From positions 1 to 41,043 of the forward strand of contig JAHFBQ010000003.1 of NCBI GenBank assembly GCA_023249935.1: 41,043 nucleotides of DNA, written 5' to 3'. The position numbers and the translations under genes are program-made. Positions within the stretch are counted from its first letter, which is position 1. The number at the start of each line of letters is the position of its first letter. Under the pieces are notes generated by a model, which saw only the letters and a list, made by a program, of their open reading frames with translations, made no database searches and was not told where the DNA came from. Shown one piece after another: positions 28,044 through 40,919 of this stretch. The DNA is from a bacterium (GTDB taxonomy: Bacteria > Babelota > Babeliae > Babelales > RVW-14).

Positions 28044-29468
28044 TTATTTTTCGTCGTGCTCACCATCTTTGTCTTTTTTGTCCTTGCCTGGCGTATCTTT
28101 TTTATCAGGTTTGTCTTTTTTGTTTGACTTGTCTTTTTTATGCTCTTTCCCCTTACCCTTACCAGGCTTATCTTTTTTTTCTTTCTTGTCAGCCTTCTTA
28201 CCAGGCTTATCTTTTTTACCAGGTTTATCTTTTTTATCTGACTTGCTGACTGCGCCTTTTTTATCTTTCTTTTCATCAGACTTGCTGTCTACACCCTTTT
28301 TATCTTTCTTTTTACCTTTTCTTGGCTCGTTCATAATTGTTTTTACTGCTTCATGACGATTCTCTCTATCAAAATCATTCATGAGAATCTCTTTCTTATC
28401 GGTAAGCGCCAGTACAACGCCTTCAGCATTAACAAACAAATCAATAATACCCTTGGCATCCTGTCCTTGAACATTCTTTACTTTTACCCATTTCTTCGAA
28501 TCTTCATCATACCTAAAAATAGTAAAAGCTTCCTTCCCCGTTTCAAGTAATCCCCAAGCTTCTTGAGGGCTTGGTCTTGAAATTTTACTTAACTTGAGGC
28601 CTTCTACTTTCTTCCAGGCACCACCAGTTCCGCCTTCAAGCTCAAAGACTTCTTGCTTGTCATTAACTGCAGACACAATGCCTTTTCCGGCCGAAACATA
28701 TACCCCATCAAAACTATGATCAAACCCCTTTGATTTAAGTTGATATACTGCATCTTTCTTGCCATCATTCGCAACACACCAAACATTATTTTGATCACAG
28801 ACACTTACCATCTTGATAATCAAATTATCATTACCAGCACCCTTATCCATAAGCATTGCCTCTACAGGCTTAGCATCTTTTGCTGGCTCAACCAATTTCC
28901 AAGCGGTATCAACCTTTTTTACCGGCGTTTCTGGATGATTTTCAGGATCAACTTTTGAAACAACAACCTCAACTTTGGCTACAGGAGGAGGTACTACCAA
29001 TGATTCATCAGCGGCTTTTTTTGCATAAGCTTTAAGATAATCATCACCTGCAAGAACCCCACCCTTATTTTTAGCTAAAGTAGGATCAAACATAGTCACA
29101 TCACCCCATCCCCATTCAAATTTTTTATCTACAGACTCAGCTATTCGAAGATGCACTTCTTTATCTAATTTTTTAACTGCAATTGCAACCAGTTTAGCTT
29201 TACCAGGCGCAGGATCGCCAAACAGATCATTAAAGGATTCCTCTGGAACAACAATTTTATCGCCTTTTACCATTTTCGATTGAATAATTTCGGCAACAGA
29301 CTTTCCTTTATAAGTACCGTTTTCAGACGTACTATTCGATGATACGGGATTTCCTTCAATTCCATACCATGCAGCCAAAACCTTCATCTCATCAGCTTGC
29401 AATAAGCTAATAGAAAAAAAAGATAGTAATAATATCCTGCAACAATTTTTGGCATTAAATAATTCCAT
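28044..29468 (-). CDS. Gene C': secreted protein with DUF3395/SUEL-like domain, four tectonin-like propeller repeats (3-6) and Lys/Asp-rich tail
   Basis: Signal peptide from ATG 29468 (GAGG SD; alternative start 29510); AAWYG...FNDLFGDPAPGKAKL; from WKLVEPAKDAK onward it is a close paralog of 34593..35582; KKDKPG repeats. Confidence 0.8.
   Translation of the reverse strand: MELFNAKNCCRILLLSFFSISLLQADEMKVLAAWYGIEGNPVSSNSTSENGTYKGKSVAEIIQSKMVKGDKIVVPEESFNDLFGDPAPGKAKLVAIAVKKLDKEVHLRIAESVDKKFEWGWGDVTMFDPTLAKNKGGVLAGDDYLKAYAKKAADESLVVPPPVAKVEVVVSKVDPENHPETPVKKVDTAWKLVEPAKDAKPVEAMLMDKGAGNDNLIIKMVSVCDQNNVWCVANDGKKDAVYQLKSKGFDHSFDGVYVSAGKGIVSAVNDKQEVFELEGGTGGAWKKVEGLKLSKISRPSPQEAWGLLETGKEAFTIFRYDEDSKKWVKVKNVQGQDAKGIIDLFVNAEGVVLALTDKKEILMNDFDRENRHEAVKTIMNEPRKGKKKDKKGVDSKSDEKKDKKGAVSKSDKKDKPGKKDKPGKKADKKEKKDKPGKGKGKEHKKDKSNKKDKPDKKDTPGKDKKDKDGEHDEK
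28061..28320 (-). repeat. Low-complexity coding repeats (KKDKPG-like) in the tail of C'
   Basis: Recurrent accaggcttatcttttt-type units on the + strand. Confidence 0.75.
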
Positions 29469-29529
29469 AATGCCCTCATTTATAAGCCCTACGGCCAAAA
29501 TCATTTTCATATGTTTCCACCTTCACTAG

Positions 29530-38158: not shown

Positions 38159-38162
38159 GAAC

Positions 38163-40919
38163 TTAAGCAGCAGCTGACTCTACAGCTTTAGTTTTATGCC
38201 TTTTCTTTTCTCTAGCACCAGGCTTCCCGTCATGGTCAGCATCAACTACATCTTGCTTGCCATCACCATCAGCATCTGTAACCCTTTTTCGCTTTTTATC
38301 TTTGCCTTTCTTTTCTCCTTTATGACCACTCGCTACAGCATCTGGTTTGCCATCGCCGTCAGCATCGATCATTGCACCATCGGCATGCTTATCTTTTTTG
38401 CCTTTGCCTTTCTTGCCTTTGCCTTTCTTGTCTTTCTTGCCTTTTTTATGATCGCGCTCTTCAGCATCAGATTTTCCATCGCCATCAGCATCAATCATGG
38501 CGCCATCGGCATGCTTATCTTTTTTGCCTTTGCCTTTTTTATCTTTCTTAGCTTTCTTACCTTCTTTATGATCTTGCTTTTCAGCATCAGGTTTTCCATC
38601 ACCATCAGCATCAATCATTTTTGCTACGCCTTTTTTTAGCTTCTTTTTATCTTTCTTCTTTTCCTTTTTGTCCTTCTTAACTTTCTTATCTTTCACATGC
38701 TTTGCTTGGTCTTTAGCCTTATCTGCAGCTTCTTTTGCTGCTTTTGCAGCAGTTTCTGCTTCGGTTTTTGACGCAGCATCTTTTGCTTCCTCTGCGGCCT
38801 TAGCTGCTTTTACTGCTGCCTCAGCTGCTTCTTTTGCTGCCTTATCAGCGGCTGCAGCTGCCGCCGCTTCTGCTGCTGCTTTTGCCGCTGCCTCAGCAGG
38901 ACCTCTAACAGGAATATCCAATGTTCCTTTTTTCAAGACCTCTCCCCTGATATTCATCAGGAGTAACGCACCGCCTTGATTTGCAACAGCTTCTTTGATT
39001 CCTTCAACAGGTTTGCCAGCAGCATCCATCACCGGAGCCCAAGCACCCTTGTCAAACTTATGAAGGTAATAGCGACCATCCTGTTCCTTGGTACCATACA
39101 TAGTATCTTTATCGATGATGGCAAAGCGGCCTATTTTGTTTGGATTGTCAAATTCTACCCATTCACCGTCTTCTAGTTGGTAACAATCGAGATTTTTGTT
39201 AACCGCTAACAATGTATGTGGATAACCGGCAGCAATCGACATTGCTTGACCATGCGCAATGCGCTTCCATGCTCCATTAGAGTAAATGAAAACATCCGAA
39301 GACTCTTTATCAAGAATCGCGATCAAATCTTTACTTGCAATAGCCACACGATCCATGTCGATTGGTCTATCATCAGCCCCTTTTGGCGCTCCAAGGTTTT
39401 TCCAAGTATCTCCGCCATCATAAGAAACGAACAAACTTCCATCATCAGCAAGTACGCCAGCAGTACCATCAGCCGCAACCGCAACATCCTCAAATTTTGC
39501 AGGCGCTACTGAGCCATCTTTGACCTCAACAGCTTCCCAACCACCCATCGTAGCACCACTCATTTTGCTGAGCTTACGATCAGCAGAATCAATCATCATT
39601 GCAAGATATTTACCTTTAGTGGTTGCACCAAGAGCAATGCGATGCGCAACCCCCTCAATTTTTTCAATACCAGCAATATCTGAAATGGTCTGTTCCTCAA
39701 TAGTTGCTTCTGGATCGATTTGAATATCTTTAAATTCAACATCAAGATACCAACCCCCAAGTCCAAGATATCCTAACCCATCAACAACAGAATTTGCATG
39801 AGTAACTCGTTGATGCTCATTTTTTCCAAGAATCGTACCTTTACCCCAGGCAATAGTAACCTTACCGTCGGCTACTTCATAGGTTGCCCAATAATCTTCC
39901 CACGCAGTACCTTGATAGCTTCCAGTTTTTTCAAAATCACGGTCACTATCTTTTATTCTCCAGGCATGAAGCTTATCTCCATCAAATCCCCATCCACCGG
40001 TCAACATATCACCTTGATCACCACCTTTTTTGGCAGGATCATTTTCATACAACCAACGACGATCAATTTCGGTCCCACCATTATGAATGATACTGCGCGT
40101 GTTAGCATGGGCACCGATTGCTATCCAATACGCTTGATTATTAGCAAAATTTGCGGCGGGACTAAAAACAATATACGCATCCAGCGGCGCTTTAATTTTA
40201 AGCTTCACGGCACCACTTTTTGCCGACTTAAACGTCCATTTATCAGAGAAAGCAAAACCGTTTGCATCACGCATTGCACGTCTGAATGTAAACGCTGAAC
40301 CTCCGGCACGATCTTCATCGCCAACTGGATCGATGATTTCGATTTTTAGCCTTTCCCAAGTTCCATCACCAGAGGGACGATTCAGCGCATAGTTACCAGC
40401 AACTCGCCCATCAAAAAGATTGCCAGGAACTACTGACAAAAAGGTTTCTGTTGCTCTATTTTTTAATCGAACACCATCAAGATCATTCGCATCAGCAGTA
40501 ATCAAAGCCCATTGCTCCCAAGCACCAAAATTCCAATTTTCAAAACGACATACACGCATTGATGGATCAGAAACATTGCACTGTAAATTCTTACCACGAT
40601 TTTGTAGTGTTTTGATAGCAAGCCAGTTAGGATCATTGCTCATACGAACTATTTGAAACTGACAACGAGGATCAGTTTTATCTGTACCAGTTGCTTTAAG
40701 ATATTTATACTCATTTGGGTTTCCTGTGTCCGCAGAAGTCTTTTCAAGACACAAATATTTATTTCGTTCCTTAGAATAAATAGCCACTACAGTTCCGGCC
40801 TTTAACTGCTGTAACTGAGGTGAATCTTCAGCCGCACTTGCAGGAAGTTCGGCCAACAGCCTACCATCGATTATGGCAACCGCCAACAGGCCAGCTAATA
40901 AATATCGACATTGTTTCAT
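38163..40919 (-). CDS. Gene A: secreted protein with fascin/ricin-like beta-trefoil, FAMeT-like domain, six-repeat tectonin-like propeller, Ala-rich coil and Lys-rich tail with five DxDxDG motifs
   Basis: ATG 40919 (MKQCRYLLAGLLAVA) with AAAGGAG SD (track start 40961); GAWEQW and GTWERL trefoil motifs; KIKAPLDA...YWIAIGAHANTRSII...YWA...IAWGKG...GYLGLGGWY; DVAVAADGT, SIAAGY. Confidence 0.82.
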   Translation of the reverse strand: MKQCRYLLAGLLAVAIIDGRLLAELPASAAEDSPQLQQLKAGTVVAIYSKERNKYLCLEKTSADTGNPNEYKYLKATGTDKTDPRCQFQIVRMSNDPNWLAIKTLQNRGKNLQCNVSDPSMRVCRFENWNFGAWEQWALITADANDLDGVRLKNRATETFLSVVPGNLFDGRVAGNYALNRPSGDGTWERLKIEIIDPVGDEDRAGGSAFTFRRAMRDANGFAFSDKWTFKSAKSGAVKLKIKAPLDAYIVFSPAANFANNQAYWIAIGAHANTRSIIHNGGTEIDRRWLYENDPAKKGGDQGDMLTGGWGFDGDKLHAWRIKDSDRDFEKTGSYQGTAWEDYWATYEVADGKVTIAWGKGTILGKNEHQRVTHANSVVDGLGYLGLGGWYLDVEFKDIQIDPEATIEEQTISDIAGIEKIEGVAHRIALGATTKGKYLAMMIDSADRKLSKMSGATMGGWEAVEVKDGSVAPAKFEDVAVAADGTAGVLADDGSLFVSYDGGDTWKNLGAPKGADDRPIDMDRVAIASKDLIAILDKESSDVFIYSNGAWKRIAHGQAMSIAAGYPHTLLAVNKNLDCYQLEDGEWVEFDNPNKIGRFAIIDKDTMYGTKEQDGRYYLHKFDKGAWAPVMDAAGKPVEGIKEAVANQGGALLLMNIRGEVLKKGTLDIPVRGPAEAAAKAAAEAAAAAAADKAAKEAAEAAVKAAKAAEEAKDAASKTEAETAAKAAKEAADKAKDQAKHVKDKKVKKDKKEKKKDKKKLKKGVAKMIDADGDGKPDAEKQDHKEGKKAKKDKKGKGKKDKHADGAMIDADGDGKSDAEERDHKKGKKDKKGKGKKGKGKKDKHADGAMIDADGDGKPDAVASGHKGEKKGKDKKRKRVTDADGDGKQDVVDADHDGKPGAREKKRHKTKAVESAAA
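38215..38620 (-). repeat. Imperfect 120-126-bp coding repeats (Lys-rich plus IDADGDGKPD) in the tail of gene A
   Basis: Three MIDADGDGK units plus two degenerate ones; 38515-38578 matches 34711-34774 at 63 of 64 nt. Confidence 0.88.

Follow-up and report, generated by a model that had tools for sequence, protein, structure and literature searches.

Why would a bacterial locus encode a complete beta-propeller in one secreted protein and, directly beside it, what look like two separate pieces of the same propeller in two other secreted proteins? The question is raised by six genes at one end of contig JAHFBQ010000003.1 (GenBank assembly GCA_023249935.1). The window analysed here is the entire contig of 41,043 bp, and the assembly is a reduced-genome Dependentiae metagenome-assembled genome (1.27 Mb, 94 contigs, 80% complete); the source names of homologues include "Candidatus Dependentiae bacterium" and "Candidatus Babeliales bacterium". 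We propose, with a probability of roughly 0.6, that the locus encodes Sec-exported, non-enzymatic lectin-type proteins, in which B and C together form a divided version of the design found whole in A and are predicted to assemble.

The six long, co-oriented, minus-strand open reading frames (ORFs) occupy positions 28044-40961 and are transcribed in the order A, B, C, A', B', C' (Table 1). This agrees with an earlier note made from the sequence alone (the original prediction), which had placed a tandem A-B-C / A'-B'-C' module of secreted lectin-domain proteins at 28044-40919; its end coordinate also fits the probable start of A, an ATG at 40919 with an AAAGGAG-type ribosome site ahead of it. 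All-versus-all BLASTP bears out the paralogy proposed for each position, with 26.8% identity across 485 residues for A/A' (E 2.9e-33), 57.2% across 741 for B/B' (E 0), and 57.0% across 221 for C/C' (E 5.5e-86). Five DNA sequencing runs, labelled groundwater or freshwater metagenomes, contain the locus, and there is no RNA run among those listed. In the Logan contigs of two of these runs, which are fragmented and of depth 4-6, no listed piece spans the C|A' junction, so that they give no independent confirmation of the tandem join.

The division of the propeller is visible in the sequences. An alignment of A-type proteins resolves six blades with an invariant Trp at the blade starts, and a 268-position hidden Markov model (HMM) was built from the A propeller. 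A and A' match positions 1-259 of this HMM, i.e. the whole propeller, while the C-termini of B-type proteins match only positions 1/27 to 88/110 and C-type proteins only positions 87/96 to 247/259. The same complementary coverage is found in both modules of the window and in three further genomes (G001, G019, and G012), with B only in a fourth (G007). Because propeller blades are repeats, the register was tested with sub-profiles: blades 1-2 were the best match for 19 of 19 B tails (36.3 bits versus 28.3 for the next register in window B; 66.2 versus 31.8 in G019), and blades 3-6 for 18 of 18 C proteins (68.4 bits versus 33.5 and 22.3 in window C). Across all 1089 ORFs of the genome, the HMM matches only A and A' in full, B and B' over blades 1-2, and C and C' over blades 3-6; six blades in a single chain are thus present in A and A', and neither the two-blade B and B' nor the four-blade C and C' qualify. 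At the level of sequence, B and C are complementary pieces of an A-type propeller, and this complementarity is the central feature of the locus, one that the original prediction missed.

Structure modelling is consistent with the two pieces belonging together. Folded alone, C reaches a predicted local distance difference test (pLDDT) score of 89.8. In the C-domain model, whose residue 1 is residue 36 of C, residues 16-182 superpose on residues 72-227 of Tectonin 2 (Z 13.6; root-mean-square deviation 2.7 A; 144 residues aligned), and the superposed part comprises the last four of Tectonin 2's six blades, in six-fold geometry. The C model likewise resembles the fish-egg lectin 4ruq (Z 14.2), and there are no four-bladed propellers among its top structure matches. 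When B 576-692 was modelled with C 36-224, the complex scored 0.90 (0.90, 0.89, and 0.90 in individual runs) versus 0.00 for the best of three controls, on a scale whose pass mark is attained by 58 of 80 solved complexes and by 2 of 110 mismatched pairs. The runs share at least 91% of contacts, with partner pLDDT of at least 88. Modelled contacts join B 675-688 to C 55-76, in the first blade of C, and B 577-599, the first strands of the B segment, to C 195-214, in the last blade of C; contacts at both ends of B with the first and last blades of C are what a closed ring requires. Together with the register test and the C superposition, the complex model lends support, for B with C, to the earlier idea that the locus encodes a complex, although the physical assembly of the two chains into one propeller is a prediction from modelling.

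How might the parts work together? A and A' are single chains in which a beta-trefoil and a Methyltransf_FA-type domain precede a complete six-bladed Tectonin-type propeller, followed by a basic tail. B carries a MIR trefoil and a second, MIR-like trefoil, continues through an Ala/Glu/Lys-rich helical spacer, and ends in blades 1-2; C, predicted to be exported by its own signal peptide, would supply blades 3-6. After export, B and C would close into one six-bladed propeller, blade 2 of B lying in the model against the first C blade and the first B strands against the last C blade. Such ring closure would be a non-covalent means of mounting C, or the C' variant with its additional lectin-like domain, on the stalk formed by B.

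Several observations weigh against this reading. Because B and C are halves of one known fold, the score of their complex could be due to resemblance to single-chain propellers with solved structures. A study of engineered propeller fragments reports that mixtures never gave hetero-oligomers, only homo-oligomers, and that beta-propeller repeats are almost always found in a single chain (PMC6805158). The Pfam Tectonin family (PF19193) matches at 18.6-28.3 bits, under its 30-bit cut-off on every protein, and the whole-propeller profile is significant for only 7 of 15 B homologues. Signal peptides were judged by simple sequence rules only, and the proteins could be periplasmic, crossing of the outer membrane being predicted at most.

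The B-C gene pair recurs outside the window. B is followed by C in four other genomes, with the gene orders A-B-C-priA in G019 and G007, B-C-A in G012, and B-C-priA-clpB in G001, while in the window clpB-priA adjoins C'; the synteny that the original prediction proposed to look for in related genomes is therefore present. In G007 the C gene next to priA (L032 13327-14308) consists of two overlapping frames of 157 and 176 residues, the product of a frameshift or sequencing error, and G001 holds four B N-termini, mostly at contig ends. The same genome G007 has a second 2 + 4 pair (L034 7910-12570), in which P0045, a protein of 1065 residues with trefoil-like repeats, a Methyltransf_FA-like domain, blades 1-2, and a basic tail, neighbours P0165, a 337-residue blades-3-6 protein annotated without a signal peptide. 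Between them lies an 81-residue ORF that does have a signal peptide and that may, with P0165, represent one gene broken by a frameshift. This pair indicates that the 2 + 4 division recurs with a different head. Among 150 A'-related representatives listed, 58 have the full propeller, 8 are long and end after blades 1-2, and 8 are short with blades 3-6 only; P0045 and P0165 are members of this set. We also looked for an unsplit B (MIR plus six blades); there is none among the 15 B homologues, and the 7 that are detectable all have blades 1-2 only.

The distribution is patchy. B-type matches occur in 14 of 24 genomes of the window's family and in 0 of 16 from other families in the order, full-length-type B matches (E <= 1e-57) in 4 of 40 related genomes (the four named above), and the C domain in 8 of 35 family genomes (E <= 1e-5). 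Of 121 genomes of the phylum, 4 contain MIR and 15 Methyltransf_FA; neither was found in any of 14 control bacteria, where all three domain families lack matches as far as they were checked. These counts point to a lineage-specific repertoire with eukaryote-type domains. In a tree of B proteins whose remainder is unresolved, B' is sister to P0003, a protein of another organism (support 99/98), and not to B, so that the B/B' duplication is old. Hence the "two alternative versions" of the original prediction are only part of the picture. As a separate observation, Methyltransf_FA-like domains are expanded in the window's family to 2-18 matches per genome, many of them in giant ORFs of 1000-5400 residues (e.g. 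G009:C3, G017:C13, and G008:C1, and C18 and C60 of the window's own genome).

The remaining domains are of binding type. Pfam MIR (PF02815) scores 49.4 bits in B and 63.5 in B' against a cut-off of 25.6, and Methyltransf_FA (PF12248) 31.4 bits in A and 48.0 in A' against 24.2; a scan of the whole proteins adds sub-threshold Tectonin matches in A, C, and C'. A profile of 16 A-type proteins finds Tectonin 2 (5fsb), a six-bladed lectin, at E 7.7e-27, and one of 19 B-type proteins finds the SDF2-like MIR protein 3mal at E 8.7e-25, along with Pmt MIR domains. Residues 276-446 of A' match PF12248 clusters in the Atlas with feature scores of 0.95-0.96, and the nearest Atlas clusters of the Methyltransf_FA-like domain are eukaryotic. 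Pfam cut-offs, Protein Data Bank (PDB) profile matches, and Atlas scores therefore uphold the earlier assignment of MIR, Methyltransf_FA, and Tectonin domains. The second trefoil of B (residues 222-482) has no Pfam match even at E 10. It contains three internal repeats with a W-x-H-x-x-S-R-x-G type motif, read from the sequence, and its predicted structure is a trefoil (pLDDT 86.1; predicted template modelling score 0.87) whose best Foldseek matches (E about 4e-8 to 4e-6; template modelling score, TM, 0.5-0.76) are MIR domains of Pmt2/Pmt4, N-terminal domains of the IP3R/RyR receptors, and axonemal trefoil proteins. Residues 295-469 of B are also related to A' 81-267 (26.5% identity, E 4e-7).

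For the N-terminus of A, residues 45-220 match PF14200 weakly (E 0.007; 17.5 bits against a cut-off of 25.6), and the region resembles ricin/fascin trefoil clusters in the Atlas (feature score 0.89; structure TM 0.71-0.76); a phmmer search of the PDB gave nothing useful for it or for the Methyltransf_FA-like domain. The N-terminal domain of C' has no Pfam lectin match, and its residues 36-152 match the rhamnose-binding lectin 5h4s at E 0.0017 only. SUEL / rhamnose-binding lectin domains have a conserved cysteine framework, and residues 40-152 of C' are without cysteine, so that by its sequence the domain has a likeness to this family, not membership of it.

In all six proteins the N-terminus is basic and leads into a hydrophobic core whose best 12-residue Kyte-Doolittle mean is 1.5-2.7; an A-x-A-like site with a small residue at -1 was read from the sequence. 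By these rules the signal peptides that had been claimed for all six are borne out; a later membrane-span-like window is absent from every one of them, as is a recognised outer-membrane anchor. Export through Sec appears probable, possibly followed by passage through one of three secretin-type channels, the genome holding three secretin genes. The Lys-rich C-terminal tails described earlier are likewise present in all six proteins, with 22-39% Lys over 44-114 residues and a net charge of +5 to +20. The tail of A follows an Ala/Lys/Glu helix, is basic, and holds four D-x-DGDGK-x-D motifs. Such motifs are encoded by a 120-nucleotide repeat unit common to the tails of module 1 (two copies in C, one in B, three in A; 62-86% DNA identity), giving four in A, one in B, and two in C; module 2 lacks them. 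Tails from other genera are rich in Arg/Lys or in Ala/Lys/Pro, those of G019 being nearly pure Arg/Lys. In these sequences the charge of the tails is conserved and their sequence is not, and such wide differences in composition suggest a role of bulk charge rather than of a specific targeting motif. We rejected the basic tail as a genome-wide sorting signal, since only 12 of 1089 ORFs pass a strict cut (at least 35% K+R within the last 40 residues; ORFs of at least 100 residues), namely A', C', and ten short basic proteins or unrelated ORFs; A, B, C, and B' are basic over a longer stretch and fail it. Separately, an ORF of about 815-820 residues with a Lys-rich tail is found in two genera with similar N-termini (G000:C76 35249-37711, minus strand; L033 5969-8416, plus strand).

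In light of these features, what might the proteins do? Dependentiae are obligate parasites of protists. The trefoils and propellers probably bind glycans, the Lys/Arg-rich tails may anchor the proteins electrostatically to an anionic surface, by analogy with the Lys-rich HBHA tail, and we infer a role in attachment to, or recognition of, a protist host. The expectation of host-glycan binding and of a surface location comes from the kinds of domain present, the signal peptides, and the way of life of the phylum. A further suggestion, which we put forward tentatively and at somewhat less than even odds, is that B·C is a natural 2 + 4 Tectonin propeller whose closure serves as a docking joint for interchangeable lectin heads on two-blade carriers, allowing combinatorial host recognition; the candidate interchangeable parts would be C, C' with its extra lectin-like domain, the MIR stalks, and the Methyltransf_FA heads.

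RSL and BambL are two-blade homotrimeric propeller lectins, and on their pattern B might not be paired with C at all: a trimeric coiled coil could bring three two-blade units into a homotrimeric six-bladed ring and leave C as a separate protein, e.g. an open or self-associating four-blade lectin. The roughly 100-315 residues of Ala/Glu/Lys-rich helix ahead of the B blades would suit such an arrangement, as would the reported tendency of engineered propeller fragments to form homo-oligomers (PMC6805158), but the blades of B and C are position-specific homologues (1-2 and 3-6) and not interchangeable units, the two-blade and four-blade genes occur 1:1 and always adjacent, and the B-C model has ring-closing contacts at a score of 0.90 against 0.00 for the best of three controls. 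We regard the homotrimer as unlikely. The cell's own envelope offers a slightly better, though still improbable, setting, in which the proteins would be periplasmic or surface scaffolds that bind the lipopolysaccharide (LPS) or peptidoglycan glycans of the cell itself, with basic tails on anionic lipids. Tectonin-family lectins can bind LPS. Such lectins are also reported to bind bacterial and O-methylated glycans (PMC5238581), and a position conserved among the housekeeping genes priA and clpB, together with Sec signals and no recognised outer-membrane anchor, would fit. Against this, a patchy distribution (8 of 35 genomes for C and 4 of 40 for full-length-type B) is more what one would expect of an accessory trait than of a core envelope trait, there is lineage-specific expansion in a sister genome, and the domain families are rare in the phylum (MIR in 4 and Methyltransf_FA in 15 of 121 genomes) and without match in the 14 controls where checked.

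Delivery into the host is a quite unlikely role. Under this reading, mimicry of host proteins would fall to MIR and Methyltransf_FA, and membrane penetration or nuclear targeting to the Lys/Arg-rich tails; the resemblance of MIR to eukaryotic SDF2-like and Pmt domains, the eukaryotic Atlas neighbours of the Methyltransf_FA-like domain, and the nearly pure Arg/Lys tails of G019 speak for effectors, while Sec signal peptides and lectin propellers suit extracytoplasmic binding and tail composition varies widely between genera. Most improbable of all is an enzyme cluster, e.g. of methyltransferases or glycan-modifying enzymes, for which the one argument is the name of PF12248 ("farnesoic acid O-methyl transferase"), a family that A and A' match over its cut-off. 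No NCBIfam family matches any of the six proteins over its cut-off, Pfam finds binding-type domains and no catalytic domain in the whole proteins or in domain pieces, the two databases give no cofactor-binding family, and the second trefoil of B, the only unassigned region that was folded, is predicted to have a binding-type fold. We rejected the enzyme reading on the NCBIfam and Pfam results, which also accord with the earlier statement that no catalytic motif was recognised and give no match to a characterised enzyme cluster. We favour exported lectin-type proteins with a propeller divided between B and C.

The conserved 5' leaders claimed for B and B' are real, with 42 nucleotides, first codons included, that are 95% identical compared with about 73% in adjacent coding DNA. 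A 22-nucleotide core over the ribosome site and first codons shows no change in any of the 6 B copies from the genus (L023-L026), which hints at a translational control element. Of the B|C hairpins predicted to be conserved, that of module 1 is strong (-25.5 kcal/mol, z -5.3) and its B'|C' counterpart weaker (-20.7 kcal/mol, z -1.8; 7 of 200 shuffles fold equally well); in G001 and G012 the B|C spacer has hairpins at the same place with different sequence, and in G019 none. The 117-nucleotide spacer between the modules folds at -43.1 kcal/mol (z -5.8), in keeping with the terminator placed there, while the promoter proposed alongside it finds no support, a consensus scan giving 22 promoter-like sites versus 25.1 expected from shuffles and none at the junction. 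The hairpin between A and B (-57.1 kcal/mol, z -13.2) has no counterpart in the A'|B' spacer and may represent either a terminator or the insertion of a palindromic element. At the right edge, the minus-strand terminator noted previously is seen as a hairpin with a T-run (about 41008-41043; -20.9 kcal/mol, z -2.6). The last stretch of the window, 40341-41043, is also covered by a public contig (record 8 of run X1), which continues for about 2.5 kb more.

Table 1. Genes, domains, and other features of the six-gene locus (residues numbered in each protein; positions are those of the window)
Feature	Residues	Positions	Strand	Remarks
Gene A		38163-40919	-	918 aa from ATG at 40919; ORF of 932 aa extends to TTG at 40961
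A beta-trefoil	45-220 (from TTG)	40302-40829	-	weak Pfam and Atlas leads
A Methyltransf_FA-like domain	about 225-425 (from TTG)		-	
A six-bladed Tectonin propeller	430-694 (from TTG)	38880-39674	-	
A|B hairpin		38095-38158	-	about 30 consecutive base pairs; module 1 only
Conserved B leader/start region		37989-38030	-	copy ahead of B' at 32074-32115
Gene B		35648-38005	-	785 aa
B MIR trefoil	about 30-218	37352-37918	-	
B second MIR-like trefoil	222-482	36560-37342	-	
B Ala/Glu/Lys helical spacer	about 470-578		-	
B propeller blades 1-2	579-692	35930-36271	-	
B|C intergenic hairpin		35604-35632	-	no T-run
Gene C		34593-35582	-	329 aa
C propeller blades 3-6	about 40-224	34911-35465	-	
Intrinsic-terminator-like hairpin and T-run		34531-34580	-	between C and A'
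Gene A'		32142-34475	-	777 aa
A' trefoil-like domain	31-270		-	related to second trefoil of B
A' Methyltransf_FA domain	276-445	33141-33650	-	
A' six-bladed Tectonin propeller	452-724	32304-33122	-	
Gene B'		29592-32090	-	832 aa
B' MIR	40-212	31455-31973	-	
B' second trefoil	230-493	30612-31403	-	helical spacer after
B' propeller blades 1-2	about 606-711	29958-30275	-	
B'|C' intergenic hairpin		29528-29561	-	weaker counterpart of B|C hairpin
Gene C'		28044-29510	-	488 aa; start likely Met15
C' extra N-terminal domain	40-152	29055-29393	-	weakly like rhamnose-binding lectin
C' propeller blades 3-6	about 198-376	28383-28919	-	
Terminator-like hairpin and T-run		41002-41043	-	for unseen upstream minus-strand gene; contig end
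Signal peptides	A 15-37 (from TTG); B about 1-25; C 1-22; A' 1-30; B' 1-26; C' up to 39			
Basic tails	B 697-785; C 225-329; A' 734-777; B' 726-832; C' 382-488			

The left 28 kb of the window contains ordinary genes (recR, yidC, a BamD-like lipoprotein, a penicillin-binding protein, cysS, kup, mnmE, clpB, and priA) and one tRNA-Gly. In addition, an 824-residue ORF at 6339-8813 (plus strand) has a C-terminal bacterial EndoU nuclease domain (PF14436, E 2.1e-6) and is followed by a 186-residue ORF without a Pfam match (8834-9394, plus strand), a layout that resembles a polymorphic toxin with its immunity gene. A 402-residue ORF at 19090-20298 (plus strand) has a Peptidase_C39-like domain (E 7.6e-14), and ORFs near it (16895-17635, 20461-20955, and 21158-22556) are without a family.

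Tectonin-type propeller lectins, MIR trefoils, and Lys-rich adhesin tails are already known. Phrase searches of the literature, which are weak evidence, found no natural propeller split into two differentiated, separately exported chains beside an unsplit paralogue. Neither did we find a paper that joins Dependentiae with tectonin or the MIR domain, one on Dependentiae and lectins that was relevant by its title or abstract, or one on their attachment machinery, though this does not prove absence from print. If our proposal is true, the locus would offer a natural, conserved setting in which to study how a fold splits and is complemented, the undivided paralogue being encoded in the same operon as the two differentiated, separately exported pieces. 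It also marks a lineage-specific secreted repertoire with eukaryote-type lectin domains in Dependentiae.

Among known systems, the closest in fold are Tectonin 2 of Laccaria bicolor (5fsb/5fsc) and the fish-egg lectin (4ruq/4rus), six-bladed proteins of the Tectonin/tachylectin-1 type with the blade number and geometry seen here. They are small, single-chain, single-domain proteins, whereas here the propeller is one module of secreted proteins of 780-930 residues and, in B and C, is spread over two polypeptides. A closed propeller made from more than one chain has parallels in RSL and BambL and in Sec13-Nup145C, a case of blade donation in trans; the former are built from identical two-blade units and the latter has a single blade inserted, while B-C would combine 2 + 4 differentiated blades from two gene products exported separately. 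The N-terminus of B is like the MIR domains of SDF2-like proteins and protein O-mannosyltransferases (3mal, 6p25, 9e7a), as the Pfam and profile scores above indicate, and Foldseek extends the resemblance to its second trefoil; B differs in having no transferase or chaperone context, in being bacterial and secreted, and in carrying two tandem trefoils, the second without a Pfam match. For the tails, the mycobacterial heparin-binding hemagglutinin (HBHA) offers an analogy, for the tail only; it is not known to have lectin domains or a signal peptide. What they have in common is the layout by which HBHA is described in two papers, as a surface adhesin with a helical/coiled-coil region followed by a Lys-rich C-terminal tail (PMC3293801, PMC12814364).

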